Part shown: in pieces, positions 30,075 through 64,000 of the stretch
How the letters are laid out: the number at the start of each line of letters is the position of its first letter
How positions within the stretch are numbered: position 1 is the stretch's first letter
From: Amphiscolops sp. MND2022
Lineage: Eukaryota
Assembly: GCA_964187785.1 (NCBI GenBank)
Contig: OZ076409.1
Location: forward strand, 29,886,001 to 29,950,000
Direction: 5' to 3'
Length of the DNA: 64,000 bases
Notes under the pieces: generated by a model
What the model saw: only the letters and a program-made list of their open reading frames with translations
Told to the model about the DNA's origin: nothing
Database searches by the model: none
Position numbers and translations under genes: made by a program

Positions 30075-30275
30075 TTAAGATTGTTGGATCTTTTCAAATG
30101 TGTAGTTGATTTCATCTAAGGATGTGCGTATACACGAAGCTGAAGGGCTAACTCTTGTCGTATCAAATGCAAAATTTTGCATTAGATCTCGGGCTTGTTT
30201 AAGTGTATTTACAATATCAGCAATAGTAATGAGTGTATCCTTTTTTGGGTTATGATACCGTTTTAAAATTTCCAT
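30075..30275 (-). CDS. Small accessory ORF (66 aa) of element C
   Basis: Its ATG overlaps the upstream stop (TAATG); intact, helical-looking sequence. Confidence 0.5.
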   Translation of the reverse strand: MEILKRYHNPKKDTLITIADIVNTLKQARDLMQNFAFDTTRVSPSASCIRTSLDEINYTFEKIQQS

Positions 30276-31353: not shown

Positions 31354-31783
31354 TATTTTAACTTGCTTGAATTTGTAGCGCTGAAATAATAATTTTGTTT
31401 ACCAAATAATAAAAATAAGTTAGAACAAATTGGAACGTTAATTTTTAAGGTATTTGTGTTCATTAGTTAAGAGTTTTTTTGAAAATAAAAGTTTAAATTG
31501 TACTTACAATATTGGAATGTCAGTTGTGGCTCAGAAAATCAACAATCACAGTGGCATCTATTCCCGGAATAGAAACTTCTGTGATTTCTAGGATTCGTGG
31601 TTTACAGGGAGTGAAGTATTTTTCCATGTGGGGTATGATGTTCCAAGTGAAGTCGTTTGGTTGGGTTGAGGTAGGCAGCTTGTCCAAGTGAGAATTTTTG
31701 GGTAGAATGAAAGTTGAATTGTGGAGTTATTTGTTGTTGAATTTTTGAAATTTGCGTTTACTTTATTTTATTTGGTTATTACA

Positions 31784-32259
31784 TTTTAGTCGGCGCTTTT
31801 CTTAAGAAAAGAACCCGACTATTAGTCACTCGTTTTTTTTTATTTAAGTCAGACTCGAAGCGACGAACGTTAAAATTAACGTTCAACTACTAAAAACAGT
31901 ACTAAACTACTGGAACGGTAAAGGCAAACGGGGAGCGCATTCATTTACTTTTTAAACGTTACCTACAAGCCCGGACGGGACTAAAGGGTCCCCCTTTTCG
32001 AGTTTTTTTGGCACTGTGAGACTTTTTTTCGAAATTTTTTTAATGTCCCCAAAGAGTCCCCCCTTTGAGTTTTTTGTTATTTTGCTACAGAATGCGTGTT
32101 TATAAATCAAAAAGGGTCCCCCTTTTACATTTTTCGGCACTGTGCGACATTTTCCGAAAAGAATTTTTTTTCGAAAATTTCAAGTTTTTTTCCAAAAAAA
32201 TGTTTTGCGATTTTTGAGCCTTGGATACAGCGCCGACTTGAGACGTTCCCGTCTTGTTT
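31784..32259 (+). mobile_element. Helentron-associated non-autonomous element (HINE-like) nested in element C
   Basis: 5' TTTTAGTCGGCGC with partial IR CCCGACT; 3' GCGCCGACT, then hairpin AGACG-TTCC-CGTCT and TGTTT. Confidence 0.85.
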
Positions 32260-32262
32260 CTG

Positions 32263-34802: not shown

Positions 34803-34804
34803 GG

Positions 34805-36240
34805 TTAAAATGTAGTTCTATAGTAAAGTCCTGAGAAGGGATTAAAGAAGTTTATATGACCTGTTCTAATTTCTGGTAATTCAGCGTCACAAAGATAAGA
34901 TATTGATGTGACTAAAAACGGTGAGGGAGTTGTTTTATGTGCTACTCTTGTTGAAAGAGAAAATGGATGGGGTTTTAAGGAGTTGATTGTAACTTCAACT
35001 TCGAAGTTCAATACTAATTGATCTTCTTGTAATAATCGTAGTTCTCTTTGTTTTCTTGGGTTTGAAAGAGAACTATTGTTTATAAATCTATCTGAGAGTA
35101 CAGTGTATCGAGGATCTTCGTTAAGACTACGAATAATCTTTGAGTTAACACCAATAGGATATTCGTGTGGCATTGGTGTAGGAGGTCTCGAATATTCTTC
35201 TAGAAAATATTCGGGTTTTGTATGGATGAATCAGATAGTTTTGAACTAGGTGAATAAACTCGTGAAACGTTTGCTGCACTATCTGATATAGTTTGAGGAT
35301 CTTCTGAAAGGAGGGATGCTGTTTCAAATTCTGATGTGACTTGAAATGGTAATGATAGAGAAGATGGTATAGTGGGGTGGGATGAGGAAAGAGAAGAAGT
35401 TTCTGATCTGGGTTGTGCTTGTTGTCTAACTAGTCTTTAATTTGTACTGGAACTAGTTAAAGGTTGTAATTGTTTAGAATTTCTTCGTGATTGGGATCTG
35501 AGGTTATAACTATGTCGCGGTACTCTGGTACTAGCAGTTGAATCAGAGTCTTTATCTTTGTAATATAGGTCTGTTAAGGAAGAAGTAGTGTTTGATTGTA
35601 GGCGGTCTAATTCTAGTCTTGGGTGTACTTGAGAAAATGTAAATGAACTTAGTTCAGATGGTGAACTAACTATATGTTCTGGTATAGTTTTTATTGGGGA
35701 TTGACTTGTTGATGGTAGAGCAAGGTTCTTTGGTAATGTTGGTATAGGAGTTTTTCTAGGTAATTTGGTTGCAGTCGGTATTCTATGTGGACAAGAATGA
35801 ACGTATTGAAGAACTGAGCTAGGATCAGGGATATGAGGAGTACGAGTGGTAGGAATTGGTGGAAGAGGGGGTCTGTTTAGGATACTTGAAGTATCTTGTA
35901 CATTGTTTTGGGTTGTAAGTGATTCATCACAAGAATCACTTGTAGTTGAACTTATTTCTAAAATGGTAGGTTTTGTTGAGTGTATTGTGGTTGAGTTGTT
36001 ATAATATTTTGTGATTGAATTGTTATTACTGGTGTTTGAGTTTGAAGTATGGGTGTATTATTGGGCGTTACTGTTGCTCTATCAGGAGAATATGGAGCAG
36101 ATGGGCTATGATTTGAGGATGAGGAATCCAGTATGTCTGTATCTGAATTTAGGTATGCGGTATATTCAGGTAGTGTTTGGAATGAATGGGTTGAACTAGA
36201 TGATGAGTTGTTTCTGTTTGATGGAGGTGAGTGTCTATGT
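34805..36240 (-). pseudogene. Ser/Thr/Pro-rich extra ORF (or Pol extension) between integrase and env
   Basis: Low-complexity coding-like sequence with a YNLRS motif, ending in the ordered-looking ORF 34805..35173, which stops 2 nt before the env start. Confidence 0.5.
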
Positions 36241-36399
36241 CTATCAGTCTTGAAGTCTTTTTAATTTTAAATTTCAGTTTATGTTTCAGTTTCAATTTCT
36301 TTTACTTTTCTTTTTATAGTATCTTTATTCAGATTACTATCTATAACTATTCAGCTCAAACTTTTTTTCAGCAGGGTTTTTGAGAAAACGAAATTATAT

Positions 36400-39300
36400 C
36401 CTTTTCACCGAGGAAATGTCGATAGTCTTTTCGTGGTTGTGGGCGGAAATTGTATTTGTTATAGATGTGTCTTCGGGGATTATTATAGTGGTCGTAGTCA
36501 TGAATATTAGATTGGTTTTCTGGGTTGGTATTATTGGTATTTGTTAATTTTGTTGGTACGGAAATAGGGAGTATTGGTTGAATGATTCTGGTTGAAAATC
36601 AATTGTAAATGGTATATCCGTTTCTTTACTGGAATTTGTAAATGTGTGGTCTTCGTCTTCAACTGATTGTTCTTCATCGGAAAAAGAATCAGAAGGCTCT
36701 ATTGAGTCATTTATATTCGAGTCATTATCAATATTATCATCTTTATTTGAATATGGATTATATTGTTGTATGAAAGGAAAATTGATGGGTTCCTGTGGAA
36801 ATACGGAACTAAATGGTTTCTGTGAATATGAGAAGTGTAACCATCTTGATTAACAATTTCAGATGTAATATCAGAAAATTTATTAATGATTTTAAATGGT
36901 CCAATTCTGAGAGGTTTCAATTTATCTGAAAAATGAACATGGAGAAAATTCCTTTTTAGTACAAATGTACCAATGTCTAAGGGTCTTGGATTATTGTATG
37001 TTTTATTGAAATAAGCAAATGAAATAATTTTTTTTGTGTTTTCGTAGACTGTGTGATATATTTGTATCATAGCAGTGCAATTTCAGTAGCCAAAATCCCT
37101 TGTGGAATTGGTTTCGATAAGATTTTATGGAAGACAGGGTTTAAATTTGATTTGTCATAATGTGTATGAAGTGGTAAGTCCTGACAGTATTGAGAAATGC
37201 AGTTTCTATAAGTATCTTTTTGAAGATTGAGTTCAACGTTTATTGGGATTCTTGGTATAGTATGAAATAATACTTCGTATGGTGAAAGTTTTATTTCAGG
37301 AAGTGGTTGTGAATTATGTGCATAAGCGTACATATGGACTTGGGTAGACCAGTTTTCTGGTGTGTTATGTAGAAAAAGTCTGAGATGGGTTACAAGGTCT
37401 TTGTTTTGATTCTCTACTAAACCTTTTGTCCATGGTGCGTAAGGAGTTCTTGGTGAATGCCTGATTCCCATTGTGGTACAAAGGTTTGTAAGTTCAGAAT
37501 TAAAGTATTCTGAACCACGGTCTGTAACAGAAAATATGGGAGGTCCAAATTTAGTAATCCAATGAGGTAGTAGGGAATTGACAGCATTTTGAGCATTGTT
37601 TTGTTTAACAGGTACTGTTACTACAAAGTGGCTGAAAGCGTCAACTGTCACATGAATGTATGAGTTTTGTTTTGATGGTGGATTTTTAGGTCCTTTTGTA
37701 TCTATTTATATTCGGTAATTGAAATTTGAAGCATTTTCTGAAAATGTTTGTTTTGTTGCAGTTTGAATTTTTCGATTATTGTGTTTGTTTTGTTGACATT
37801 CAATACAATCGTGAATGAATATTGACATCCATTTATATAAATAAGGTGGAAAATAAAATAGAATAAAAGTTTTGATGGATATTTTAACTCCAGAGTGTCC
37901 ACGTGCATGAAATTTATTGAAAGCTGCATGAAAGAGTTTAAATGGTAAACATACTTTGTCTTCTTGATTTGGGTTTGAATCATGAACGTTAGGGTAATCT
38001 ATATGAATGATTTTTGTATCATGGTTGATGTACAGTTGATTGAAGAAATTGTAGTAAACCGATGTGAGGAATTACTTGCTATTGTTGCTTTTGTTGGATC
38101 TATTTTTAAAGGTCTTTCATTAGTCTTTAATCAATGGTAAACCTTTTATAATACAAGGTCTTGTTTTTGTTGAGATTCTATAGTTTCAATTGTTATTTGA
38201 GTGTCTTCTGGTAGGAAGAAATAATGAAAATATTTTTTGTACTTGAAGAAAGATGGATCAAAAAATGGAACTTGTTGATTACAGTAATCAGATTCAGTGG
38301 GGTACTGTATTGCTAGTGTTTGTTCTTTTGATGTGTTTGTGTTTTGATTCTTCGTATTTTGTGATTGATTTGGCCCGTCTTCATCACGAAGAATATCTGT
38401 GTCATTGAGGAAAGTTGATTGTTGTACGAGTGATTTTACTCGAGTCTTTGTAGGTCTAATGTATTTGGATTCAAGTGGAACAATGGATTGAAAAGAAAAT
38501 GAATCTAATGGTTTCATATGAATGTCTTCTCCTTTGTTGTTTATGCGAATGGAAAATTGGTCTTCGCCATAGTCAGCGAGAATTGGGTGGCAATCATTTT
38601 TTTGATGATGTTTGATTTCTTCATGTTTTACTAAAAAGTGTACGGGTTTGAGTTGGTACACTTTTCATGATAGAGAAATCTTTTTGAGGTGGCAATTGTT
38701 TGTGTCGTAATCGATGTATTTGAAGTTGGTCTTTTGTGAAAGTTCTAGAAAGCATGTCTGCTACAGTTAAATTTTTTCCAGGAGTATGAATCATTTTTAG
38801 TTTAGAAAATTTTGTTAGTTGCATTTGTGCTTTATGAAATCTTGGGCTAAGGTTTCCTTTTTTTGCAAAACAGTGTAATAAAGGTTTGTGGTCCGTGAAG
38901 ATGTACATCGGATGAGGGGATCCAATCATGAGAAATTTATATATTTGTAATGCATAAACTATTGCGAGGAGTTCTCTGTCTAGTGTTGAAAGTTTTTGTT
39001 CTTGTGTATTAAGGATTTGTCAATTGTAAGAAAAAACTCTCATTTTATTTTTTTCATTCATTTGGAATAGGACTGCGCCTATACCAACTAAGGAAGCATC
39101 AACTGTTATGAAAAATGGATGTTTTGTATTGGGTATGGTTAATTCAGTTTCTGCTGTCAGTGTGTTATTAACGTCGTGAAATATTCTTTCTATTTCGGGT
39201 GTCCATTGAAATTTAACATCATCAAATAACAAGGTATATAATGGTTTGAGATTTATATGTAGTTTTTCAATGAATTTTGAATAAAAGTTTACACTGCCTA

Positions 39301-41280
39301 AAAATTGCATAACATTTTTCTTTTCTTTTGGTGATGGGATTCTTTTGATGGCTTCATTTTTATTGGGAATGGTTTAATTGTGTTGTTCCCTATTTCATGT
39401 CCAAGGAATTGTACTTTGAGTAACATATAAAAAGATTTTTCAGGTGCAGGTTTGAGATTTTTTTGTTGCTATTTTATGGAGTTTTCTGATAAGTTCAATT
39501 ATTTCTTGTTTTTCGTCTGCTAATTGTAATATAACATCAATATATACTAATGCAGAACGTTTGTCTATAAGTGGTCGAAAGAAAGTTGACATTTGTTTTG
39601 TAAAAAAAAGTAGGAGTCTTTTTATTCCATAGAATCCACGGATAAAGGTATATAAATTATCTCCGGATGAAAATCCTGTAAGTTTGATTGTTTCTTCGTC
39701 TAATGGAGTATGAGCGTATGCAAACAACAAATCAATAGTTGATTTGTATTTTTTGTTAGCTCTAGCTAATTGAGGGGCTAAAGGTTCTTGAAGGGCTGAA
39801 GGTTCAATGGGCCAAGATTCAAGTTCTTGATTAGTGTTTGAGTTTAAATGTCTAGCATCTAAAACAATTTTTATTGCGGCTCCTTTTGGGATAATGAATA
39901 AAAGAATTTAAAATGTTGTTCCAATAGTGTGTTTTTTATCTGGCGTGGAGCCAATTTGTTTTATTATGTTATATCTTTCAAGTTCTACTAAGAGTTTGTT
40001 AGTCTATCTCTGTAATGAATTGGTACTTTAGAGGGTCTTTGTGTTTGAAGATAACAATTTACTTTAATTCTAATTCTGAATGGAGTAGAAATTTTTCCTA
40101 CGTCATTTCGACGTTCAGCGTTGAATTGATTAATAATAAGGATATTGCAGAGGCTTACATATTCTGTATCAGTTAAATCTGAATATTCAAAGTTGAACTA
40201 TTTTCTGAATTGTTGACTTTCTGCAGTATATGGTAGTGAAGGAAAATCTTTTCTAATTTTATCTGAGGGTCGAAGATTTCCTGTGACAGAAGGTATGGGT
40301 AATTGAAGTGTTTTATGATTTATTTCTATTTTGTTGATTTCTAATAAGGACTGTGGGATTACTCGAGTACATAAATTCATATCGGTAATATCATTTTGTC
40401 TAATTGGAATGGTAGTATCAGGATGCTAGGCATGTATTACTGAATGAATAAACGAGTTTATATCATGAACGCTATAATGAGGAGGTGTTGTTTGAGTAAT
40501 AGTGATTTCTATATATCCAATAATTCCTTTTGGTAGTGTAGCTGGATGAGATGTAAAATTTTGAATTACTGTTTAGCAGGACTCTTTGCTTTTGTCGTTG
40601 ACTGTCATGTCTAAGAAGTGAAAAATATCTTTAAATTTTTGTAGGAAATATGTATATGGAATTGATGGACAAAATTTGGTATTATCTTCCAGTTCAAAGT
40701 GCAAGTTAGGATAATTTTTGATTGGGAAATGTATAGTCTTTCCTGATCTTGGTTTGAAGTGATTTGGCTCTTTACATTTAATAGTATAAATGTATGAGAT
40801 ATATGGGTAATCCTTTTCTGTAAATGTTGAGAAATGTGTTTTTGTAGGAAGTTTTGGATGTTGTTCTTTATTAGTCATGATATTTTGTTGAAAGTCTATA
40901 TATTGAATATTTTTCTTGAAAAAAGGTGTTCCAAGAATAATATATTTAATAGTTGCTACTGCAAATTCGATATTGAAAGATCGATTTTGATGATTTACTT
41001 CAGTAAAACATGTCATTGAAATAAAGTGTATTATTGGTACTTCAGTTTGATTGGCAACTGTGAGAGTTTTAGCTCTTTTGTTTTCAATATTTTTGGAACA
41101 TTGTGATTTAATTGTTTTGCAATTACATGAAGTGTCGGTAAGTTCAAATTTGATATGGAAGCTCCAGTATCTAAGAGGAATAGGATTTCTAATTTTGAAG
41201 GTAATATGTTGTCTTTTCGATCAAAAGCATGTACATATAGTGGATATAAACCAACTATAAGGAGTAATTGTTTTTGCAAT
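36400..41280 (-). pseudogene. pol: pol (protease, RT, RNase H, integrase) of element C
   Basis: FLLDTGASIS; RT FAYAHTPL/ALVYIDVIL; FLGSVNFY; ITVDASLVGIGAVL; IFTDHKPL...ADMLSR; integrase VDAFSHF...VTDRGSEY...GLVENQN; GPF module. Confidence 0.93.
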
Positions 41281-41299
41281 TTCAGTTATTAGGCATATA

Positions 41300-44200
41300 T
41301 GAATTTCAAATTTAGTACTATCGCATGTATGAATTTCAAATTTAGTAGTATCTTTGTCGTTGGTAGATTTAACATCTACTTGTTTTTTTTATATTTTGTT
41401 GTCTGTTTCGTGATGATCGTCTAGATCATGATCTGTAATCTCTTGGTCTAGATGGAGATCTATACGGGTAAGTGTATCGTCTAAAAGAGTTTCCTTGTGA
41501 TTGAGAACGAGATCTATATCTTGATCGTGAATTATATCTATAATTGGAGTTGTTTCTCTATGGTGATCTAAATGGAGATCTGGATGGATTTCTTCTTTGA
41601 TAATGATTGTCATATCGGGATCTAGATGGGTATGGACTTGGAGATCTATTGTAATATCTTTGTCGAGAATTAGATCGATAATTATTTTGTGAATAATCTC
41701 TACTGTTGCTTCGGTATCTGTCGTTATTTCTACAACGGTCATTGTAGTAGGGGTAGTTATTTTGATTATATCTGTTACGGTCGTTATCTCTAGAAAAATA
41801 ACCATTTTTATTTTTATTTCGATTTTCTTGTGAATTACTAGGTTTACTACGGAAGTATTGTACAAAGGATTGTTGAGGAGTTCTTGATCTCTGATTTTTA
41901 TATCTTTGATATTCTTAATCACGTTGTTTTTGATAACAATTTGAAATACTATGATTGTTTTTGTGACAATAAGAACATTTTTTTGTAGGCTGGTTTGCTT
42001 TTGTTATTTGGGTCTCCAAATTAATTGAGTAACCATTGTATGGTCATATTCTGATTCTTTGTTGTTAGTATCATCTTCAATTGATACTTCGTTTAATTCT
42101 AAAGCTAGATCATTTGTTCTTATTTTTCCTTTAGCGATATCGTCAGATCAACATGTCGAACAACTGTGTGAAATGGTATTGATGGTTCAAGTAATGTTGG
42201 TCTGCTGTGAGCAAAATCTTTTATTTTTTAGGTAATCTTTTTGTGCAATTATCATTGTTTTTGAGATTTATGGTAGATGCACTTTCACTGCACCATCCCT
42301 TTTTAACTAATTGTTGTACTCTAAGAGCAAAATGGCGTACTGTTTCATTATCTTTTTTCATGAGTGACATAGCTTCTACTAGTGCGTAATAAGCTGTTTT
42401 TTGAGATGAAAATTGTTTTTTAAATAGTTGTACAAATGAAGTCCATTGTTGTTTATATGATATATGGAGATTAGTGTACCAATCAAGAGCTGTTCCAATT
42501 AAAGAACATTGTATATATGCCATGCGTCTATTATGCCATGACCTACATTTTATAGGATTATATTGAGCTTCTTCACCTATAGCAAAGGTTAGTCTTGCTT
42601 CAACTTGTTGTAAAGATTCTTCTGGGGTGTATGAAAAGTCTAAATCGTCAAAAGGTTTCATAGGTTCTGGTATTGAAGCTGAAGTATTTATGAATGTATT
42701 TTGTTGTATTGGCATATACTGAGGTGGAGGAACTACAGGTTGTATCTTGTTTACGGGTGGTGAAATTGTAGTAGGGTTGGAAGTTTTATGTTGATTCATT
42801 TGATATAGAGAGTCAGTAGATATATGCGAAAGTGGAGGATTTTGGGATCTTCTTTGAGAGGGTTGTAAAATGTTTGAATAAGATGTTCTTTGGTTTTGTA
42901 AAGGAAAACTACTTTGTGAGGAAATAGTTTGTGATAAATGTGCGTATGGGTGTTGTGTCCTTGGATTGTTATTAGGTTGAGAAATATTTTGAGTATTGTT
43001 TGTTTGAATATTTGTATTAGATGGTGGAACAAAGGAATTATTAAATGGATCATAGTGTTGACTAGAAAATTGTTGGTTACTTTTACGATTAATTTCTGAT
43101 TGAATTGTTTTATTCGACTGCTGAAAAGCAGAACAAATTGGTGGAGGATCATATATAAATCGAGTTGTATTTCGTGTATTATTAGAAATAGACCTTGTAG
43201 GTGCTAAAACAAAAACAAAAGTATCACGGGTTGAAGTTATATTTTGAGTTTCATCTTGTACTATATCATCTGGGTGAGTTGGAAGAGTAAAGGTGTTATT
43301 ACGATGTGGAGATGTATCTAAGTATGATTGCGGTTCATGTGTATTTTGTCTTGGGCTAACAACCCTAGTTGGAATTCTAACAAATTGAGAGATTGCTGAT
43401 GTCTCAGTTTGTGATGCATTTTGTGCTGAAGTTGTAGATTCTGAAGTGGTATACTCACTTGCATTGTTTTCATTTATGTGGAGTAAAATATCTTCGTTAC
43501 GAATTTCAATTTGATTTTCAAATATGTATTCTTCATTATTATTGTCGTCTTCTTCATTGTTATTGTCATTGTTGGTAAATAGGTTTTGTTGTTTTGAATA
43601 TTCTGTTCATACCGATACGGTCTATCATCATCTTGAAAATTGTTTTCTTTAATTAAACGAGGATCAAAAGATATGAGATCCATGGTTTGTTGTGTTACTT
43701 TATCTGGTTTGAAAAAGTAAGGATGTTCATTTTGTTCGTTCATGATGAGTGGTAAACATTCATCAGCTGTAAAATGATTGTGAAATGTTGCGAAAGCAGG
43801 TTGATCTTGTTCTGACCATAATAGTTGATAATTGAATCTGAAATAATTTCTAAGAAAGAAGGATATCACTTTAGTTTGAGGTATTGTTTGTTCGTCTAAT
43901 GTTATATCTTTGAAAGAATGATACAGGAAATGTTGTATTCGTAGTATATCTGCTTGTGACCAATGATGATGAATTTTTTGAGTTGTAATTATTCTTTCTA
44001 TGTCTTCTACTTCGAAATTGTGTATTCATATCGTTCAAGTTCTTCAAGTGCATTTGGGCTAAATTTTGGGTTTTCAAGTGCTAAGTTGTATTCTTTCATT
44101 GGGGACTATTGGTATTATTGTTCTTCTATATGTTTGAAAAGAGGAGGTTTCTTGTTGCGGAAAAGTAATTTGGAAAGATTGATATTCCGTAGAGGCAGTT

Positions 44201-44600
44201 GTAGATCTATGTCTAATATAGAAGAGGTATGTATCCAGATGTTCTCTAATAAGAGGAATTGTTTCAAGGCTGTAGGGTTCATTTTCAATTGAAAGTGGTT
44301 GAGTATAATTGTAAACAATGTTATGTAAAAATGGTTTTTATTTCAGTTTTTACTATTTTTGCATTTTTAATGTAAGGTATCTCAAAAGGTGAAGGGAAGA
44401 TACTGAGGAGTTCATGTTAGAGATTACTTCTTATTGTTGTAAGTATCTTTTCCAACAGGATGCAAAATAAGAATAAAACAGAAAATGTATAAGTGGTGAT
44501 AAGTATTATTGTGGTAACTTTTTCCCACAATATAGATTGTCTAGATTCAATGTTGAGAGTTTGTTATAATTATAACATTAGTTGCAACCGTTGTGACAAT
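41300..44600 (-). pseudogene. gag: gag of element C with long N-terminal extension and RS-rich C-terminus
   Basis: Capsid-like PFD...YTPE..LQQVEARL...L.GTALDWY...W..FVQLFKKQF...ETVRHFALRV; CCHC knuckle CSYCHKNNHSISNC ~41930-41980; RS/Y/N-rich tail. The 5' boundary is approximate. Confidence 0.8.
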
Positions 44601-46343
44601 GATTGTTTCTATTGTGTGTATGGTAGTGGTCAAAAAGATTAATAAGTATAATCTATTTTGTTAATATGTATGAAGTTAAAATTTTGTTAGAAGTTTTAAG
44701 TTGGTGATCTTGGGTAATTTCGTTGTTGGTCTAAAAGATAGGAAAAGAATTGTGCGTATTGTTGACTTAGTCTTTCAAAGTCTGCAGCTGAAGGGTTAAA
44801 GATTGTACTGAGTTGATGTACAACTAAATGCGTAGGAACAGTTAGTGAAGGAGTAGAGAAAGGTGAATTGTCGGAAGTTTGGTTATGTGTGTTTGAGTTA
44901 ATATTTTTTAAAATATGAAATAAATATGAAATTGTCTGGAGTTTTGGTATTGTTAGGGATAGAGAAGAAAGAAGCGGATGCAATAGAATCTGTATTCAAC
45001 CTCAAAAGATTGCTAACAGAATCTGAGTTGTGATTTAATTCTGGAATAAATTAAAGTGTCTGACATAAGGCCACTGACACGTCCAGTAAGAGTTGTATTT
45101 TAGAGCTGGACTTCAATTGAAGTGTCTAACATAAGGTTACTGACACGTCCAGAAAAGCTGAGAGAATTTTAATTTTAAGTGGGTTGTGTGTTTTAAGACT
45201 GACGGAGCGGAACTCTGACCAATCAACGTCCACTATCCAAAGTCGGATCAATACTGATCAAGATCAAAGTTTGATCTTTTGTGTGTTTTACTTTTTACTT
45301 TTACTTCCTGAGAATTTCGAAGATTCGAACGTAGTTCGGTGTCCTCAAGATTCTCCTTGATGACGTTTAAACTTAACTAAGGTGTTTAGTCAGCTTAGAA
45401 TCAGACTACGCAAGTTAAAATAAGGTAGGGTCTGATTGTTTAAGTCTTACGGGAGGGAATAGGAATTGTGGGTGCCTGAAAGTATAAAACTACCTTTACA
45501 GTGTGTTTTTTATTTTTATCTCCTATTTTAGATTTTAGGGCAAAAGAGTTGTGTTAAAATTTTATGTGTGGCTTTGTTAAAATTAAATGTTTTGTGAGGA
45601 TGGGTTAAAATGATTGACTAGATTGGGAATTTTGTCGACAGAAGATTGATAACGAGAGTTTTGGTTGCTTTTTATGGATTTCTGATTCTAATTCAGAGGG
45701 TCTTTTTTTGAAGTTTTTTATTAGAAAATGGATCCAAAACGAAAGAATAGAAAGTCAGGTTTTCTGCCAACACGAAGTTGATCTTGAAACGTATATGCTT
45801 ATAGGTGAGATGAGTCTAGTATGCACTCAGTCAACTATTACACCAGGAGTCCACCTGACGTTCAAGATAGCAGGATTGAAGAATTTATTGCCGTGTCAAA
45901 GGTGTTAGAAAACCTTGATAAACCGGACAAAACTGTTTCAACAAGCTTTCGGATAACTGTGATAAATCAGTATGGAGAACAGAACTTTGTCACTGTGGAT
46001 AAATCAGTCTGAAAATGTACTGTGTCAACGTGTAAGAAAACGTGATAAACCGGCAAAGCAAGAAGAACAAAAGAAGAACCGTGTCAACGTTTATAGAAAA
46101 ACGTGACAAACCGGAATTGGAGGAAATTTTGTTATTTTTCAGATGAAGAAATTTTTTGTCTAACAATGATGTATTTATTGAAGAAATTCAAAAAGTCACA
46201 GACTAGATTTTCTAGGAAATCTAGAACAATTTCACTGCAATCCAAAAGAATTTCAAAGACAAGTAGTGGTAGGTGTTGTATTGATGAGAAAAGAGAAAGC
46301 ATTCAGCTGAGAAAAGAAAGAATTTTTGCAAGTCGCACCAAAT

Positions 46344-51274: not shown

Positions 51275-52044
51275 TGTCGTAAGCACGCAGATTAGGTTGA
51301 CTACCATATTAGTAATCAAGATGTTAGTCACATCTAGTATTTTTCTTAGTTTTCTCACCATAAGTTTTTTCGGGATTAATTTCTGGTCCCTCAGACGGAA
51401 CATTCCACCTATTTTGTGTCAAATGGCCTGATCCGGCATTCAGGGCAGTTTGGATTTGAGGCAATATCTGATTACTTATTGCGTCACTGATAGCCTTTTG
51501 GATCTGGGTATTAACGCTTCCCATCATCTCGTCTAATTCTCTTGATTACCTTGAGTTCAATTCGCTTGACAGTTTATTTATCTCATCACTGGAATTCCCA
51601 CTTGCGGAATTTTGCCCATAATCTGCACTAGCACCTATGTTACGGTTTGAACACATTTCCCCATTGTCATTTTCAAAATTATTGCTAAGATACTGTTCAG
51701 GTTTTCCTCTCTATCTACATCACTAAAGTGATTTCCCCCAAACATCACGTTAAGATTCTCAATGTCCGAGAGCATCTCAAGTCCTCTAGACTTTCTAGCT
51801 TTCTTCTGTTTTCTAGTAGTAGGCATTGAAGAGAATCCAAGCAAAAGAATGAATTGTCTTGATTGGAAAACGTAATTTTTACGGTGTACTTCTAATGAAT
51901 ATTTTAACAAACTAAACAGCAGATAGCAAAACTCAGAATTAATTCCTCTCAGGAAAACGCCGGTATATATACCCCTGAGAGGGTGACAATCACATTTTTT
52001 ACAAATTACGCGGGTAAATAACATACTAAAGGCATAATATTACA
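51275..52044 (-). repeat. Putative 3' LTR of element D, containing a TATA box and a decayed ORF start
   Basis: TGTAAT...TACGACA; preceded by a purine tract; TATATATA at ~51965; ATG at 51826 (MPTTRKQKKARKSR...), with coding-like sequence running to the CA end. No matching TSD, so not a solo LTR. Confidence 0.55.
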
Positions 52045-52834
52045 CATTCCCTTTAGGTCACACATTCCTTGGGAATCACAACATCAACATTACACTGAAC
52101 ATCAAAGTATTAGCTGCAACTTCAAACAGATTAACCTACATCAACAAATCTACTTATTTCAAAAGTAGAAACAAAGATTTCATACTGCAAGAATGCAACA
52201 TTGGCACGTGTCCCCACGTGCCCCTTATCAAATCGAGCTAAGCCCAAAACGAATGGTAATTTGCATGCGTCTTTATAAGGCCCCAGTTCATCGGACTAGG
52301 TTTAATACTGCGCTGGACAAAATAGATTAGTACAAAGCATCTTAGCATAGAAAATGCAGCATTCTGTACAGTTGAGCCCGAATAGGCCAATAACCTCAAG
52401 GTCAAGTAAGCATCATCAAAGACAGGTCAATTGTCCTTAATTGTCTCAAAGTATCAAATCCAAGACAATGAAAGTTAACCTTTCATTAGAGTGACTACAT
52501 AGTACTAGCACATTAGTTTTAATCAATCAAACAAATAACTGGTATTAAAGCACCGAACACATGAAGTGGCCGGAATTGCCCGTTTGACTAAAATACTAGC
52601 TACGCGCCGTGTGATTGTGTCAAAGGGCCTCATTAGGCCATTATTTAAATATGTTCCAATACAACAAACACTGCACCCTGATTGGTTAAGGCTACGCGCT
52701 CAAGTGAGGCTTCCGGAACAGTGCGTCGCATCACTTGAACTCGTTTCTTCCTCTACTGCCGTATAGTTGTATTTGCTAACGTCGCATTGATTCATACACA
52801 GCATCTTATTACTAAACTTTAACAATTTGTTTAG

Positions 52835-53263
52835 CTAATCGAACAGTACTTTTAACAGACTAATAATAATAACCGTACATAAAACAAAACTTGATAATAT
52901 TAAAAGCAAGTGTTTATCCTTCATGTTAGTTTTAAAACATAGGTAAAGTGCCCGGTACGGCTTCTTGCCCGGACGTCGTAGTTGTAACCCTAGTGCCATC
53001 ACAGGCGGCAGCCTGCGACACTGCGGATGCCAAGAAAAGTAAGCTGCCGGCGTTGAGCCCATGTAAGCTACTCGTCTGATGTTTGTGATATAAGCAGGCT
53101 CTCCTCGTGGCGTAGCCCTATCCATATACCATTTTGTTTTTTGTTCTTTAATCTCGTCCACAGACATGCCGCACACCATACAATTGAGGCATCTCTGACT
53201 GCTTAAGTCCGCGTACGGCTGCGAGCTTTGTATGTGGTAGGACGCACGGAAACCATAATCCAT
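52835..53263 (-). pseudogene. Sense-strand accessory ORF of element D with CxxCxxC motif
   Basis: MDYGFRASY...CLNCMVCG...; one apparent frameshift near AY.G. Confidence 0.45.
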
Positions 53264-53960
53264 AGGTTGTGGCAGCGAGACGTCCTTTGAAGGTCCCCTC
53301 TCGAGATCAGGGGAAACAAGGGTGATTCTTTGACAGGCAATAGAGTTTTATATAGCTCTATCTTGGTTTTATTCTCTTTTTTCCTGGGGGACGCATAGCA
53401 CAGCTTTTTATCGAAATACTTTGGCCCCAACTTTGGGGTAAAAGACGGCTCCAGCTGAGAGTTGCTCGGCCTGGCGACCACTTCATCGTCAAGTCCTTCC
53501 ACGGTCATGGCACGTCCCCCAACGAGTATTGGGCTTGGTTTAACTTCGTGCTCTATTCTCTTGATTAGCTCTCTGTGTCTGTTGACCAGTTTCTTCATCA
53601 CTATCACTGGATATGGATAGATATGACCGAATCAGATGAATGGTCGGAGTGTTGTTACTCGAAGTCGATGAGCTTTCTATCCAAGTTGAACTTTTGCAAT
53701 ATTATCTTTTCGGCAATTTTGAAGGTTCAAGATGCGACTGCGTTATCCAACGCCTCAAGGCAGAATGAAATCACAGTAATTCGAGAGTCAAGCCGAATTG
53801 GCTTTTTTCCGGCAGTCCTAATTCGGCTGCTAAAACTTCGGTTGATCGTGCTGATTCGACGTAAACTTTCCTGAATAGAATTCCATCCGCTGTCGGCATT
53901 TTTTATGCGTCGATATTCATCCTTCATCAACATCATCACATAGAGAGGGGTGAACGACAC
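53203..53960 (-). pseudogene. Sense-strand accessory ORF of element D, unknown
   Basis: ORFs 53727..53960 and 53203..53607 are separated by stops or a shift; coding-like composition. Confidence 0.45.
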
Positions 53961-54726
53961 TCAAGTTGTTGTCATCAAATACACTCGTCTCAAGTGAGTA
54001 ATTAGCGGGTTGCTTGAGGCCACTTCACATAAAGCGTCGCTGGTCCCTCTGAAAATGGCTTCAGCCAATCAGAATTAAGCGTCGATAAAATCGAAAAATA
54101 AATAATAAAATGGCGTAAAGTATTTTTTCTAAAAAATTCAAAATGGCGAAAATTCTAACTAAGGGTAACAGGGATAACTGAACAAAACGACAAAACGAAA
54201 TAAGGTGAGCCGCCATAATTGGGCACTAACTTATCAAACTGTAAATGATGAAGAATCTCTCGTACACTTCGCTGGCAGACTCAAATGCACAAATTTGAAT
54301 ATGTAGATAACCTCAAAACATTAGTCTGGTAAAATCTTCAGTCACGAATTCCAACTTTTAATTTTCAATTGATTTACCCATTTCCAATTCCGCCATCACT
54401 TGTATTTGTAACCATTTGCAATTGTATTGATATCCTTGTCTTTTATCATCCGACTTCTGCTTCCGTTTGCTGGTATCACCCTTCTCTTCCTCGATCTGGA
54501 CTCAGTCCGCGTCATCTGAGGCCTCGCTAGTAATTTCACCCAGCAGTCAAACCGACAAAAGCATGTCTTCAAACACAGGGTTGGTCTGGATTTGATTTTG
54601 AACTGAATCAACTTGATCAAGGTTGAATTTGTTCACTTTCGCTTCCTGTTTCCATCGTAAGACACGTGTCATCACGTTTCAATCATTCTTTTAAGACACT
54701 TCCGGAAAATTTCAAAAGCGGTAAAA

Positions 54727-57159
54727 ATGGATTTCTTTCAAGGAAGCACACCGCTAAGGTTTATCCCCTTTCGTTTAGATAACATTCCCGAGGAAATTGA
54801 ACAGATACCAGAGTCTACTAGTGTTAGGACTACTGACAGTTGTGCTAATCAGCCGCCAGTTACTACTACTGAAGGTGAACCCCAAGAATTTCCTCTGAGC
54901 GTAGACAGTGAGACTGATGTGAACTCTTTCACTGAAGCAATGATCCAAATCATGGAGAAGGTTCAGTCTCCCATCCAAGAGGAATCCATCATAGCGCACC
55001 CAAGCACCAGCGGGCAAATCAATGACCGAGAACTGGAGATTGACCCAACCTTGCCTGAAGTTCGCAATCGAACGAGTACTCCCGTACCCGAGGAATACAC
55101 TGGCGGGAGGGATAGAGGTTCCACCTCTCTTGAAACCAATCTCCAGGTTGCTCCCACATCTAGGACCCAATTAACAGAAACTCCCAGACCAAGCCAATGA
55201 TGATGTAAAAACAAGGGAAGAACAGCAAGCGTCAGGGGAAGGTACTTCCTCCTCCCTTCATGATGCTCCCCCTTTGCCTGATGGTGTCAGCATTGTAAGA
55301 TACCTCACTGATCCAAGTGAATGAGAATTGCCCGAACGGAATGAAGACTCAAGCGTACCACTTCTGTGCACAGAAATCCCGCAGGGGGTTGAGTCTGGAA
55401 CTGAAGGTGGGGATGAGTCCAGCGCCTACCAGGTCGATCCAGCAATACCCAGTACTTCCACAGGCCAAACCCGTTTCAGGCTAAACGAATTGTTAGGGCG
55501 GAGCCGAGCTCTTCTAAAAGAGTATTTTGAGACTACGGAGGCTTTTCGTCTTCCACTCGGACATCCAACAGTGGCCTTTTCAGAGACTCAATTATATCAC
55601 TTTCTAATGATTCTCACTAATGAGACTATGAGCCTTACTAATACCACTATGGAAAAGATGATTTTAGATGCTTTGAGAGGACAGCCAACTACCAGTCAAC
55701 CCCGACCTGATCAATTCCCCGATTGAGGACCAGAGTGCAAACACCTGCAGGAGTGGACTCTAGTGACTCTAGTTTTGGGTCTGAGTCAGGTTCGGAGTTC
55801 CCTGAACGTTCTACTCCCGGGCAAATCCCTGAGGATATCACGAGTTGCGAGGAAAGCGATGGCGCCAATGAAATGGCACTCGTTTGAGCTTCGTTTGCAA
55901 AGCCGATCACGGCCGAGCCCCCACCTCGGCGAGTGCTACTATGCCTACTGTAAGTTCTACAGACGAAGTGAGATCGACTGGTTTTACTAGGCAGGATGTT
56001 ACCTTATCTGAGATTCGCGATCAGACTCGGGTTGGGAAATCCCAGGAAGAGCCTCCTTCCAAGAAGGTGAAGAAAACCAGGAAGGTGTCAGATAGAAGGG
56101 TGCCAATGCGCGAAGAATTTTTCCGAAAAATTAGTTGCACCAGGTCCTTCATTTCGGGATTCGCTGATCCGGTACACAATCCACTCATGGTTTGGTGCCA
56201 TATCTGCAAGCGCAATTTCTCAATTAAGACGAAAGGAACCCTCGAGATATTACGCCATCATCGAGGTGAAAAGCATCTGCGCCGAGACCAGAGGTGGCGT
56301 TATGAGCACCTCAAGGCAGCGGACCCCATAACGGGAAAGGTCCAGCATCGGGTAAGTGGTCGAGATGGGAAACTTCTCAATAAACTGAAGCCGGCTGATA
56401 AGCAGCCCAAGTTTTTCCACGCAGAACTTGTGGACATCGAGGAAAGATTCCTCTTTTACGACGACTTCATGAAGGGGCACACTACCGACGAACAGGTCAC
56501 TCCTGAGGCCCGAGCCAAAACGCAGATCTGCATTATAGCAGATTTCATAAAGACACAGGGAGACCTTTCCTCCTCCGAAATCTGTGAGCCCTAGCCAGTT
56601 CCTTCACAAACTACCAGGCTTCTTTATGTGACTTTGATTCGGGGGAAGAGAGACTCCTCACCGTAAGTATTCATTCTACTAGACCTTGAACTGCGTCCCA
56701 TGTTCGTTTCTGAGCTTACTGTTTTCTGTTTAGGTCATCTTTCAGCACTATTTCAACCGAGCAATGAAAGACATCGCTGAACAGATCACTAGCCAGCAAT
56801 GCTTTTCCGTTGAGTTCGAGAAGAAGAAGACCTTCAGATTCATGTCGGTACAATTATGGAAAGGCAATGCGCCATGCCGGGTCTTTGTGGGGCGCAGTGC
56901 CCTATCATCTGTAGATTCGACTGGTGAATTGGGCTGCCTGGCCTGACTGCTTTCTGTCACGTCTACACGGGTTCACATCGTTGCCTGTTCAGGGGATCCT
57001 GTTGGTCTGATCCAGACTCTCAATCAATCCTCTTTCTTCAACCGAGGAATCCAGACCTGTTTCCGATTCGACGGCTTGGACCTCCCCACTTTGATGCATA
57101 AGCTGAGCTATTCTGTGTTTGGAAAGATTGGATTCTTTTCGGTCCTCCAAGCTCTAATG

Positions 57160-57192
<33 letters not shown>

Positions 57193-58881
57193 ACTCACAT
57201 GGAGAACCATGGGCCCTGAAGTCCGCTAACCTCAGCCGAGTAAGTAAATCACTTTATAATTGGGTTATGGGACTAGATGGGCTAAGAGTGGAGGTTGGCG
57301 ACGTTTTGAGCCCCGTGCTTAACTAGGTTTGTCCTTTTCAGGCTATAGCCGCCAGCAAGTTGAACTTGCAGGAGATACCTGAGCTCTGTCGCGAATTAAT
57401 CGCCCATTGGAAATAAATTGCTCAGTACTTGACGAAATATTCTCCCAGGCAGGAAGGACAAGGAGTGCCGGGGTGAGTGGTTCATTTGAGTTTGGTTCTC
57501 TTTTAATCTCTTGTATATGGTTCAATTTCCTTATCTCGGGATCTGTCATAGCAAGATTTTCAGGACGTAGTTTTTGCTGCACGTGCAAAGTTTCGAGTGG
57601 TCACTTATTTGCGACGAGTTCTTTGTGGCCAAGTTGGAGTTTTTAGTAGTCTCCTCGTTAGTGATTGTTAGTAGACTCTGAATTACCTATGAGGCCAGTT
57701 GTATGTCCGAGTTTGGACATTTCCTTGTGTTTTCAGATGTAATCAGTTTCACAGTCAATCTGAGCCAGAGGCGAGACGCATCATTTTTCCTGTGTGGAGG
57801 GGTATGTCGCTTCATCCACAAATTGTGTTTTCGATGCTACACCCCTGATACCGCGCCTCTAGAGAATGCTTGGTTCGTCCTTCTTGCCTTCGAACCTTCG
57901 GAAGGGAAATACATGGGAGTGGATGAACTCCTCATTCGGTAAAAACTCACCAGCAGGATCAATACTGCCAGCAATCAGAAAGCCGAAGGGATCCACTCTG
58001 GGACACATGCTCCCCAGACCGTCATTCAGAAAACTGTTGAAACAGTAAAGACGAACTTTGTAACTAGCGCGTTCCAGTACATTGGCTACCTCATTGATGC
58101 TACCCTTCATCAGTCCGGTCTGATCTCAGATATTGTTAATGGTCTTGCTGCCTTTGATCGCTTTATTCTACATAAACGACCAACCGAAGTTGCTCATCGT
58201 CACATTGAGGCTTTGTACACTACCTTCCTCTTGCGTTCTTGGGTGACCAACGCAGACGAGTCCATTTACCGTACTGATTACTTTGAGCTTCTGGAATACC
58301 TCCGATCTACATATCCTCCCACTTTTGATTTTACAGAGACACAAGATCTGATTGGATTCCTGATGGGCCTTGAGTTTTTGCAAGATCGACCTCGCCTTTT
58401 GTATTTGTTCAAGCTTTGTTGTCTTTGCATTACTACTAGCAGCCCTCATTACCAGCCGTCGTTATCGGGGACATCAATACTTTCAATTTTAAAGGGCGTT
58501 TGACTGATGTAGCGCTCCCATCGCAGAGCTACATGGTTGGGGTGCCCGATTCGGTTGCCAGTTGCAGCAGTGACGATAGTATGGCTAAGTTTTCTCTTCT
58601 ATTGGTCGACTTTCGACGAGCCGCATTTGCCAACGACTACAACACATGGACTTTTGTTGATTCAGTTGGACGGTCTAGAATCTATAAGTCTCTGTTGTCT
58701 TCTTACAAGGCTGCTTCTGTTGTGTCAGGACTATGGAAGAAACTACGTCATCGAGTGCCCTAAGCAAGCAACCTGCTTTGGGTATCCCTAGTAGTACGAA
58801 GAGGAAGCGTTCTGGGAGTGCCGAAACTGGGTCCACAACTTCCTCTGTAAGAGGCGTCTCTGGGCAGGATTCGTCAAAGTA
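54727..58881 (+). pseudogene. Intron-containing antisense gene, BED-like zinc finger / hAT-transposase-like
   Basis: Acidic/ST-rich N-terminus; basic PPSKKVKK; WCHICKRNFSIKTKG..EILRHH..EKH finger; GT-AG introns 56663-56733, 57240-57341 and 57473-57736; C-terminal RPRLLYLFKLCCLCITTSS resembles the hAT dimerisation region. Confidence 0.7.
57160..57188. repeat. (CT)n microsatellite
   Basis: About 14 CT units. Confidence 0.95.
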
Positions 58882-59048: not shown

Positions 59049-62000
59049 TTAATTTAGTCTTTTCTGGTATCTAAAGTCTTCTGAGTAGTTTGGGTTAGGG
59101 TTAGGCCTGAGGTTATATTTCCCTCCTCTAGGACTCAGACTTTCATATCTGTCGTCATTTTGCGATATTTCGGGCACGGTAAAATCATCCCCTCTTTTGG
59201 GAGAATTTTGTGCATCGTTTTTGTTAGCCGAATTTTCTTCTGAAAAATTTGCATCGTTTTCTTGTCTCTCAGACAGATCCGGAAAAGATTTTTCTTGATA
59301 TTTGTTGTTAACGGCCGAATCCGGCCAATAAGAGTTTTCATTTTTGTCAGCTTCATTAGCTTCATTTCTATTGGTGACGTCACATTTCATTTTTTAGTTT
59401 TGACTTTGCGCTGCATCGTTGACGTCATTTGGACTATCAGTCGTGATTATATAATCCGCTTCATTCTCGTGTGCGTCATTTGAATCCGCTTCTGCCGTAA
59501 CCGGCTGTTCGCCATTCGGCAAGTTAGTCGGAATCGGCTCGTTGCCTCGTGCAGCTAGCTGGTCATCGAAGTTTGTTTCCCACGTTAGTGTATAGAAGTC
59601 GTCTTGCGGAATGACAATTTCTTCGTCTAGGAAGTTGTCATCAAGCGGTTGAGTGGGAACGAATTTTTTAGGGCAAAATCGATGCAAGATATCTGTTTCG
59701 TTTGTATTTAGCCTGCCGACGATGTAATTCTCATTGAATAGAACTTTCTGGACTATAAATGGTCCAACCCAACGATAATCTCTGAACGGGATCTTTGATC
59801 CTTGGTGATCAGCTTTTGGCTGCAGTACAAAACAGTAATCGTTTTCTTTGAGTGGTTCCGCTTTTGCTTTGCGGTCATAATATTCCTTGTATTTAATGTA
59901 GGATTGCATGATATTCTGCTTCGTTTTATCAATCAGGAGTTTTGTCCGGTTCTGGATTTCTTCCGCGAATTCACTTGTGTGAGTGATTTTGTCGTTTGGA
60001 TTATATCCAAGCTTGTGATCCAAGATATTGTATGGAACTCGTCCATGGAATACTTTTGTTGGTTCACAACCGATACTTGCGTGATAACTCGTGTTGTGGT
60101 TCAGAACTGCTAATGGCAAGTATTTATGCCATTGTCGGCGACACTCTCCACATGCCCATTTTAGGTTCGTCTTCAATGAGGCATGGGTACGCTCCAGTTT
60201 TCCGATCGTTTGCGGGTGTTTTTCGTCGCACATTTGAGAGTAATTCCCAAACTTTGCGTAATCTCCGCAAAAATCGTAGATGTGAATGCAGTTCTTTTAT
60301 CCGCAATGAGCGTCGTTGATAGGTACGCTTGTTTCGTCATCATGTCGCTGAGCACTTTTGGTACATTGATCGCTGAGGCATCCGTAAGAGGATAGGCGAA
60401 CAGATATCAAGAAAAGACATCAATTGAAGTTAGAACATTTTCATATCCTCCACTTGGGGGAAGATTCGGCAATAAGTCAATCTGCATGACATTTTCGGGT
60501 CCAAGGTCCCATTCCGGCAAGTTAAGTAGTTCAGGCGTAATTGTTGCGTTTGGGACGCGCTTGTCCCTCGCGCATTGTTCGCACCCTTCTACCCACGTTT
60601 TAACATACTTTGCCATGTTAGGGAAGTAATGCCTCTGTCTGATCTCCTGTAACATCTTTGATATGCCAAGGTGCTTGTTAGCAGTCCCGTAAAAAGACTG
60701 GAGCAGTTCTTGGAGTAGAGTGAGTGCTGCGGGAGCAGAATTTGATGGTACTTTACGTTCCCCGTTTCATCGAAGTATTGCCTGGTCAGGACTTCAATTC
60801 GTTCTAATTTGCTTGCATAAAGTCGGTATCGAGCATCTTGCGTGATGGAGTTTTGCGTTCAATTGCTGAAGTACTGTATCCTTGGATTGTTCGATGATTA
60901 TTTGGTTCGTTTTCCGTAATCGGTCTTGTATTTCAGGTTGTTGTTTAACCAGATTTGTGGAGAGTGTTTGGATTGTTACAGCAGGTTCTGCTATGGCGAG
61001 ATTTTTCCCGATTGCTTCTTTCCTCGCCCAGTATTGTTCTTCTGTGTCATCGTCATCAATAGTGTAGAAGATTTGCTCTTCCTGTGAGACCCCTGTTGAT
61101 TGGACAATGATTTCGATTGGTAGGGTTTGTACATCTTCACGGATTTTCATGACTAATTTGTCTTTTGGGTCGGCTCTCAATCGGGACAGGTAATCCGGTG
61201 CCGTATTCTGTGCTCCTGGTCCTGGGATGTGTGCTATGACAAAATTGAACTGAATGACAGTCACAAGCGTTCCACAGGGCTTGGGGTACGATTTTGGTTT
61301 GAAAAAAATGTGTGACGGCTTTGTTGTCTGTTAGGATGGTGACCGGTTTCGGCGCGCCCCAGAAAATATGCCCAAATACTTTGAACGCGAAATAAATTGC
61401 GAGGAATTCTTTTGCATAAATGTACATTTTTATATGGGCGGAGTTGAAAGTATTTGAGCCGTAGGCGACCAGTGCATTTGCGGATTCCGTAGCATTTGCG
61501 GATTGAAGTGAGTTTCTGACTTGGGTCATCTTCTATGAGTAGTGCGTATCCAGCAGCACTAAAACTTGCATCTGTCATCAGTGCGATTTGTTTGTTCGGA
61601 ATCGGTTGTTGTAGGGCTAAGTTGCTGCATTTGTCTAGTGCTCGATTGATTTCTTCAAATTGTTGAACCAATTCTTTTGATACTAGGACAATTTCGTCAC
61701 TTTTCAGCATATTGTTGAATGGAGCAAGGCGTTCGGAAATTCTTGGGACGTAGTTTCTGTAATAGTTCAAGAATCCCAAATACTATTGTAAAGCCTTTTC
61801 CGACTTCGGAAATTTGGTTTTTTCAAGAATGTTCTGAACGTTCTGTCTTTGGGGTTTGACACCTTGTGGGGTAATCGTTCGTCCAAAAAAATCACTTTCT
61901 GTGGCACCGAAATGACATTTGTGCATTGTCAATGTAAAGCCTGCTTCCTGGATGCATTTGAATATTGCTCTCAGGTTAGCGATGAGATGATCAGCGTCGT

Positions 62001-64000
62001 TGGATGCCGATATCGTCGACGTACTGGGCACACTGGTCCGCTTTGATAACTTTATCAAGGTATTCTCGCATGAAACCGGAAAATGCGGACAGAGCCCGAC
62101 TGAGGCCTTGTGCTAAACGTCTGTACGCAAAAATGCAACTTGCAAAGTTGAAGGCTAACATTTCAATAGATCGTTGGTCAACCATCTGGAAGCAATGGTA
62201 TGCCTCTGAGCAGTCTAATTTGCAAAAAAGACTTTTGCCTGCCATATGTTGGGCGGCATCAACTAGGGTACTGACGGGATGATTATTGTTTATATAGTCA
62301 TCGGGAATTAGGTTGTTGATTTTTCTCAAGTCAACCAGGAGTCGGAGTTTTCCATTCGGTTTCTTTTGCGCAAATATCGGGCTGGCGTTTTTCGAAAATG
62401 GTAGGGTAGTGATAATTCCATATCTATGCAACATGGCCAGTTCGACATGGATGTCTTCCTATAAGTTTATTGGTGCTGGGAGACTCTGACTATAGGCTGG
62501 GGAGTCGTCCTTAGGTGTCAATTTCACCTTGAATTCTTCATTCATGCCTATATCAAATCTGTGTCTGGCGAAAATATGGAATTCCACTAGTAGTTCTTCA
62601 ATCTTTGCTTTTTCGTCGGTAGTCAAAGTGGAATCTTTCCAATCGATATCTTCTAGGAATTTCGCACTGGATTCCTCAACTTTGGTAGGGTCTAGAGTCT
62701 CCAGGTCCTGTAGGGCCTGTAGTTACCGTCGTATTCGTTTCTGGGTTGGTGTGTGCTCCTCCGGGTTACCTGGGTGTTCCGGAGTTGGGAATTAAAAATT
62801 TTCTGTATTCTGTGAATTTTTATTGGTCTTGATGAGACTGCTGACATAATGGGTTTCCTGCTTTTGGTCGTTTCTTAAGAGATGTCAGGTCAATGCCGGG
62901 TCAACCGTTTTGACGTACTTCATTTGTTCTGGCGTCATGACAGAGAAACTGGCACAATGGAGTCCTTTCTTGAGTTTATCGGGGTGATCTGTGAAGTTGT
63001 TCACAGGAATCGATATATTGTCATCGTTCAGAGTGACCAAAGCTGGGCAAAAGGTAGTGTCGCCTTCTTCATGTAGAAGGTCGCTTGGTTGCAGTATGTC
63101 AGTGCAAAGTTCTCAGGGTAGAGTAAGGAATTTGTCTTGATTAGGACTGTGTCATTTGGTGGAATGGTGATGTCAGTCGGGTTGAGGATTGGTTCTAGTA
63201 CGTTGGAGTACTTGTGGTCAGCTGTTTTGAGCTGCATCGAAAAAAAAAACACGAAATTGAGGATTCCTTGTCTCATGTCCAGAACTGTATGATTTCTCTG
63301 AAGGAACATTAGTCCAATAATTGGTACTGTCAAATGCTCCATTACGATAAAAATTTCATGGAACTCAATATCACCAACTTCAAATTTGAGCTCTATAGTA
63401 CCCTTGGAGGTCTCTAGTTGCCCATTTGCAACCATGATTTGAAAATTGGGAGGCGGACAACAGATAACGGATAACAGATTGTGGAGATAAGAGTAGGATT
63501 TTTTAGAGGTCCATTTCTGGAATTGCAATGGATAGTGCCCCAGTGTCAATTAGTTCATCTATGGTCAGTTCCTCAAAATCCATTTGGAAATAGAGCATGC
63601 GTTTTTTGCATTTAAAATTATTGTTGGTTGACAGGGGTATACAGTCTGGCTCACCTTCTTTGGTGATGAGTACATTCTGGAACTGTTTTTCATCTAGTAG
63701 CGATTGTTGAATTGATTCGGCAAAATTTTCAGTATTCTCGGTGCCCGAGGGGTTGGGAACACCGGATGGTTCGTACCATCATTCATTTGCCAATTTTCGA
63801 TTAGCGCTCTCGTTTTCTTGTTATGGGTGATTGGAGGATTCTCGTGGACTGTCTTGTTGTAATGCTCGATGTCGTCTATGACATATTGAAACTGCAATAG
63901 ATCCTGGTTGTACATCTCAGTATCCCAATAGGGATCTCTTTCAAAGTCTGAGGCGATGTATGTCGGATTGTAGTCATCTATCAAGGGAATGGGCCTGAAT
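59049..64000 (-). pseudogene. pol: pol of element D (protease, RT, RNase H, integrase)
   Basis: LIDTGA ~63545; RT SPIFAQKKPNGKLRLLVDLRKIN, KLDCSEAYH, QYVDDI ~62015; RNase H LMTDASF..AGY, ILTDNK; integrase CEQC, IDVFS, GKLERTH, WVGPF. Confidence 0.95.

Follow-up and report, generated by a model that had tools for sequence, protein, structure and literature searches.

Why should a retrotransposon carry, on the strand opposite to its own genes, a spliced gene that in parts resembles a DNA transposase? The question is raised by a Gypsy element of Amphiscolops sp. MND2022 that lies partly in the 64,000-nucleotide stretch of contig OZ076409.1 analyzed here (positions 29,886,001 to 29,950,000 of the forward strand), called the window in the following. 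Why LTR retrotransposons have antisense accessory genes has long been a puzzle, and the clade to which this element belongs appears to supply a case of a nested-transposon origin.

The host element and the structure of its antisense gene

The element enclosing the gene (Table 1) is 15,848 bp long and lies on the minus strand. It displays the hallmarks of Ty3/Gypsy elements: paired TG..CA LTRs, a 5-bp TSD and the domain order PR-RT-RH-INT, with Pfam matches to protease, RT, RNase H and the integrase finger on the open reading frames of the window. LTRs were found in all eight elements analyzed, and the 5-bp TSD was resolved in seven of them, the window's copy included. The two LTRs of the window's element are 91.6% identical, those of the seven sister elements examined are 98.5-99.8% identical, and LTR identities within the clade reach 99.9%. 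The window's copy is old, and both its pol and its antisense gene are broken. The latter is a pseudogene, with stops and frameshifts in its exons, a CT-repeat expansion in exon 2 and no canonical acceptor at intron 3.

The element has a PBS-like site starting with TGG. None of the four copies scanned has a purine tract directly adjoining the 3' LTR, and plus-strand priming in this clade may be unusual. At the 3' LTR boundary (window 53021-53045, and in the sisters shown), a pyrimidine tract ending in CAG resembles a splice acceptor.

Table 1. Positions of the element's parts and of the exons and introns of the antisense gene (window coordinates unless another locus is named; row counts refer to the 30-row alignment)
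Feature	Position	Strand	Description
3' LTR	51275..53020	-	1746 bp, TG..CA
Second accessory ORF	52932..53699	-	~260 aa, sense to the element, broken here; ends ~90 bp inside the 3' LTR
Non-coding gap	53700..54726	.	~1 kb between two head-to-head start codons; short conserved blocks and palindromes
Exon 1	54727..56662	+	~460-aa acidic S/T/P-rich N-terminus, two conserved islands, basic patch, C2H2 finger, helical region
C-x2-C-x16-H-x5-H zinc finger	56196..56276	+	resembles the LPHSNA-type hAT transposase finger
Intron 1	56663..56733	+	GT-AG, phase 0; 67-249 nt in sister copies
Exon 2	56734..57239	+	486 nt in 23/30 rows; predicted RNase H-like core, without D2 and CxxH
FSVEFE motif	56803-56820	+	within exon 2
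Intron 2	57240..57341	+	phase 0; precisely absent in L104
Exon 3	57342..57472	+	135 nt in 25/30 rows; aligned with the hAT helix that follows the RW motif
Intron 3	57473..57582	+	phase 0, bounds approximate; precisely absent in six sister loci
Exon 4 (mini-exon)	57583..57666	+	82 nt (27 codons) in 26/30 rows
Intron 4	57667..57736	+	phase 1; precisely absent in four sister loci
Exon 5	57737..58881	+	~386 aa in sisters; insertion-domain-like helices, degenerate dimerisation-like C-terminus without ERxFS, Ser/Lys-rich tail
Gypsy gag-pol (protease, RT, RNase H, integrase)	59049..64000	-	broken here; runs beyond the window end
5' LTR	L001:1350-3122		just past the window end

A preliminary description of the window had placed a gene between pol and the 3' LTR, on the opposite strand and with a stop near 58881 converging on pol, and this arrangement holds. 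The gene starts with the ATG at 54727, and its stop codon (58879-58881) and the stop of pol (59049, minus strand) converge within about 170 bp. The 3' LTR, thought to lie directly beside the gene, is separated from it by a second accessory ORF. Aligned with 29 sister copies (five others were excluded as deleted or fragmentary), the window's gene resolves into five exons and four introns. The three introns first described become four, as the supposed third consists of two introns around an 82-nt exon that had been missed; the phase of introns 1 and 2 and the FSVEFE motif were given correctly. The predicted product is about 1270 aa long, and the finger is the best-conserved stretch of exon 1. 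The basic patch upstream of it is NLS-like.

The donor GT is present in 29 of the 30 rows for each of the four introns, and the acceptor AG in 30, 29, 28 and 30 of 30 rows for introns 1 to 4, respectively. Intron lengths vary freely across all three phases. Sister lineages that lack an intron read straight through the predicted junction, and the outside proteins P0172 and P0199 read through junctions 3 and 4; both support the view that the splicing is real. Introns in antisense orientation are not recognized in the genomic RNA, which has the sense of gag-pol, and therefore survive reverse transcription. The occasional precise absence of an intron would reflect recombination with cDNA copied from the spliced mRNA. 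The clade would be a natural counterpart of antisense-intron retrotransposition reporters, its lineages differing by the precise presence or absence of introns.

The second accessory ORF is conserved, stands head-to-head with the hAT-like gene and is present in 18 of 20 elements picked by their RT. In the window as in sisters such as L057, L014 and L041 it carries a CxxC and has no Pfam match; its hydrophobic/acidic motif we take to be SUMO-interaction-like. In L032 this ORF resembles another subfamily than the antisense gene does, hinting at module exchange between the two. The gap between the two start codons is a putative bidirectional promoter. Conserved palindromic motifs just 5' of the start codon of the antisense gene (window 54610-54712) recur across clades, in 16-21 of the 28 promoter gaps, and are candidate binding sites for a host factor or a dimer. 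A motif scan of five LTRs gave no enriched repeated motif.

Distribution, selection and history

The preliminary description called for a comparison of position and orientation across copies. Loci were picked by RT alone, 20 of them at steps down the best 150 of 22,762 candidates, and matches to exons 1, 2 and 5 lie antisense to pol in 20 of 20; the sister elements thus retain the region in a fixed antisense position. When loci were picked by the antisense gene instead, pol converges on the gene in 29 of 30 and, in a second sample, in 39 of 44. The remaining five lie in a large repeated unit, and they derive from Gypsy, since those examined retain the pol end beside the gene. Among 20 loci picked by the integrase finger, 19 are unrelated Gypsy elements from a few families (22-29% integrase identity), with no antisense gene within about 9 kb; at the twentieth locus, which has the gene, one integrase belongs to the gene-carrying clade. 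Unrelated Gypsy clades are abundant in the same genome without it. The antisense gene is a real, selected and clade-defining gene, fixed between pol and the 3' LTR.

The gene-carrying clade is very abundant and recently active. An exon 5 query returned 7928 first-look candidates in the genome, a figure that should not be read as a copy number. In the 50% library, 582 relatives were found by profile. The two relatives tested, P0199 and P0131, match this genome at best at 31% and 40%, and because these matches are so weak, related genomes probably carry the gene.

The repeated unit (L107-L110 and L125, with flanks L134-L142) is at least 23 kb long; three of the loci are 98-99.8% identical and share one sharply defined right end. 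Besides a remnant of pol, the unit holds a captured copy of the antisense gene whose exon frames are open. These pol-less loci were considered as a free-standing ancestor of the gene and rejected, as L107 and L110 match the clade's pol end beside the gene. A different rearrangement, at L006-L007 (G000:C3, about 57.889-57.897 Mb), is a 4.2-kb tandem duplication of the antisense gene and the pol end, 99.3% identical, inside one element.

The second comparison called for was dN/dS. Among 17 loci, 134 of 136 pairs are synonymously saturated. In the two unsaturated pairs, which lie between subfamilies, dN/dS is 0.05, with 0.03-0.07 per exon; six near-identical pairs gave 0.15-0.42. No sign of positive selection was seen at the level tested. 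These values support purifying selection on the antisense gene. In trees of the integrase and of exon 5 (25 loci), the same three clades appear with good support, in agreement with a single old capture. Groupings within the largest clade differ between the two trees and suggest that the cassette may have been exchanged there. By branch length, exon 5 evolves about ten times faster than the integrase.

Probable hAT ancestry and catalytic state

The evidence for ancestry comes from profile comparisons. The finger, described earlier as a BED-like C2H2 finger, matches that of LPHSNA-group hAT transposases with P=1.3e-5, and the insertion-domain segment matches the same hAT group with P=0.0025. The two matches are collinear, with order and spacing preserved, and there is no match to Ac-type hATs. 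The RNase H exon lies in the position expected relative to a hAT, with an alignment that is not significant. The cysteines and the second histidine of the finger are invariant in the 30 rows; Pfam zf-BED gives only E 0.19, in 3 of 30 members. A hAT-type finger and a helical insertion domain thus appear to be present. The hAT-dimerisation-like C-terminus fared less well: ERxFS is indeed missing from the exon-5 rows shown, and PF05699, the C-terminal hAT domain, scores above its cut-off in 0 of 41 members, so that the resemblance is positional only. Taken together, these data make it very probable that the gene descends from a hAT transposase.

The catalytic state is read from mappings by non-significant alignments, in which the hAT D2 column holds S or T (30 of 31 rows), that of the catalytic E holds P (62 of 70 rows), and the CxxH and RW motifs are absent. 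At the D1 position there is a conserved E, placed by strand spacing. The protein is likely to be catalytically dead, and this can be called only likely because the RNase H alignments are non-significant and exon 2 retains other conserved acidic residues. The domesticated, non-catalytic transposase proposed at the outset is thereby backed in its ancestry by the two profile matches, and its loss of catalysis is probable.

Other searches added little. Pfam scans of the exons gave nothing above cut-off, PDB sequence searches with the gene gave no match, and HHalign against Ac-type and other hATs of the same genome was not significant. Structure comparison, suggested earlier for the hAT question, gave nothing confident: the AlphaFold models of exons 2 and 5 are of low confidence, fold searches from them were uninformative, and so was ESM Atlas on exon 2 (score 0.75). 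Among 3158 ORFs of 42 hAT loci, HMM scans identified no convincing match, no longer homologues of exon 5 were found, and the best 120 of the 239 matches to exon 1 were all single-exon relatives. Scans of viral and metagenome contigs with the finger exon gave no relatives. PF14291 and PF18658 have no match in the genome, where the controls were likewise silent.

Like the LPHSNA/ERxFS-group hAT transposases (L229, L202, L233), the gene has the C-x2-C-x16-H-x5-H finger, the insertion-domain segment and the same domain order and spacing. Unlike them, it is without D2, CxxH, RW and ERxFS, has an additional 460-aa acidic N-terminus and moves by retrotransposition. It also has no TIR or 8-bp TSD, as had been noted earlier: in 10 of 10 copies the longest inverted repeats around it are 9-11 nt, within the shuffled range, and no matching 8-mers flank it. 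Most simply, a hAT would have inserted antisense into the ancestral element and then lost its ends. The L229/L202/L233 group presumably resembles ZNF862-like hATs. One of its members (L233:260-2959), a metagenomic hAT transposase, has an N-terminal OTU-like protease domain.

The genome is rich in hAT elements; only one locus with the LPHSNA motif was found, and it is fragmentary. The multicopy segment L167-L171, in which two convergent Gypsy pol ends and a long inverted repeat accompany a deleted hAT, was considered as a second Gypsy carrying a hAT gene and rejected, as the hAT is internally deleted and lies between two pol ends.

Known counterparts and possible functions

In host-domesticated hAT genes (ZBED, GTF2IRD2 and the FAM200 family), the hAT scaffold is kept as a DNA-binding factor. 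Here the domesticator is a multicopy retrotransposon and not a host genome; transposase domestication would thereby reach beyond hosts to other transposons and cross the divide between class I and class II. The mRNA of HBZ, a bZIP protein, is spliced. HTLV-1 HBZ and HTLV-2 APH-2 are, like the present gene, antisense regulatory genes near the 3' LTR of a retroelement (PMC11963269); unlike it, they are retroviral, encode unrelated proteins and have their promoter in the LTR, while the promoter here would lie in the internal gap.

The antisense aORFs of the plant Tat/Retand, Grande and RIRE2 elements (TRP28/PF04195), whose origin is given as not known in the sections of PMC11963269 and PMC7264820 drawn on here, share with the Amphiscolops gene a long region between pol and the 3' LTR, antisense orientation, lineage-wide conservation and a proposed DNA-binding regulatory role. 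According to section 6 of the review PMC7264820, sequence support for a nested-TE origin of the aORFs is lacking, and the word 'intron' appears in neither paper. Unlike the plant aORFs, the Amphiscolops gene has four introns, encodes about 1270 aa, has no match to PF04195 and can likely be traced to a hAT transposase. Transposases can activate cognate copies, and TnpA of Spm/CACTA derives from a transposase (bioRxiv 10.64898/2026.08.24.746577, in which the term LTR does not appear). The present gene would likewise be an element-encoded regulator made from the DNA-binding module of a transposase that has lost its catalytic residues. TnpA arose in its own DNA-transposon family and is a DNA-binding domain only (bioRxiv 10.64898/2026.08.24.746577), whereas here a class I element holds a nearly full-length class II transposase scaffold. 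VANC of the VANDAL elements has been traced to a cellular protein (PMC13547354), and accessory genes of DNA transposons are treated in PMC12477816. The literature searched, which lay outside Repbase and subscription journals, yielded no account of an LTR element with a spliced antisense gene derived from a hAT. The gene belongs to a known kind of accessory gene, and its probable cross-class origin is unusual.

By combining these observations, it is possible to outline what the gene might do. That it is a clade-wide, hAT-derived antisense accessory gene, stripped of its cutting residues and encoding a nuclear regulator that binds DNA and sustains transcription of the elements, has in our judgment an even chance of being correct. 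The mRNA would start from the integrated element, within the internal gap close to the 3' LTR. Its product would dimerise via the hAT scaffold and bind element DNA through the C2H2 finger, and its acidic N-terminus would recruit host chromatin factors. It would act in trans, as an activator or anti-silencing factor comparable to TnpA or VANC. This promoter and mechanism, taken jointly, we place just short of an even chance. More tentative is the fuller proposal that an active Gypsy clade domesticated a hAT transposase as a trans-acting anti-silencing factor, with introns shielded by antisense orientation, a SUMO-interacting partner head-to-head with it, and an exchangeable 3' cassette. With thousands of candidate copies and many subfamilies, the role of dead transposases as element-encoded regulators is directly testable.

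The protein might instead serve integration, binding cDNA or chromatin and tethering or importing the pre-integration complex. Transposase scaffolds are known to bind DNA ends and to oligomerize, the NLS-like patch lies just before the finger, the gene tracks the integrase lineage, and a role in nuclear import has been proposed for the plant antisense aORFs (PMC7264820). This is nevertheless unlikely: the seven TSDs resolved among the eight elements all differ from each other, so there is no obvious sequence-specific target, the antisense mRNA would be produced separately from the particle proteins, and the unrelated Gypsy clades of the genome are abundant without the gene.

The closeness of the two converging stops would favor interference or dsRNA, and retroviral antisense proteins act as regulators (PMC11963269). 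An HBZ-like self-limiting repressor, in which the protein, the convergent antisense transcript or both dampen gag-pol expression, is nonetheless quite unlikely in view of the great abundance and recent activity of the clade; the acidic N-terminus also suits an activator somewhat better, though this argument is weak.

It is improbable that the protein still acts as a nuclease, through a non-canonical acidic triad, or is a non-hAT protein with a generic finger and helices, since two independent segments match one hAT group in the right order and spacing, with no Ac-type match, and the canonical motifs are all missing. The conserved acidic residues of exon 2, the non-significance of the RNase H segments and the lack of support from Pfam, PDB and fold searches speak for these two readings.

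Very doubtful is a decoy or poison, that is, a dead transposase that sequesters host factors directed against transposons or, by forming mixed oligomers, disables rival hAT transposases. Retention of the entire scaffold and not of the finger alone, the fast evolution of exon 5 and the plentiful hATs of the genome would agree with it, but dN/dS is low, positive selection was not seen at the level tested, and the single LPHSNA-motif locus is a fragment. Lastly, nested insertions are common in this repeat-rich genome, but a nested hAT that is still mobile or merely passive can practically be dismissed given the missing TIR and TSD in the 10 copies tested, the gene's presence in 20 of 20 clade members, purifying selection, the deep clades common to gene and integrase, and the pol end kept by the pol-less loci examined.

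Elsewhere in the window, an 18-kb stretch (28000-46000) combines strong positive GC skew with low GC. A 236-bp inverted repeat at 16241-16730, 97% complementary and with an 18-nt spacer, is probably a foldback or MITE element.
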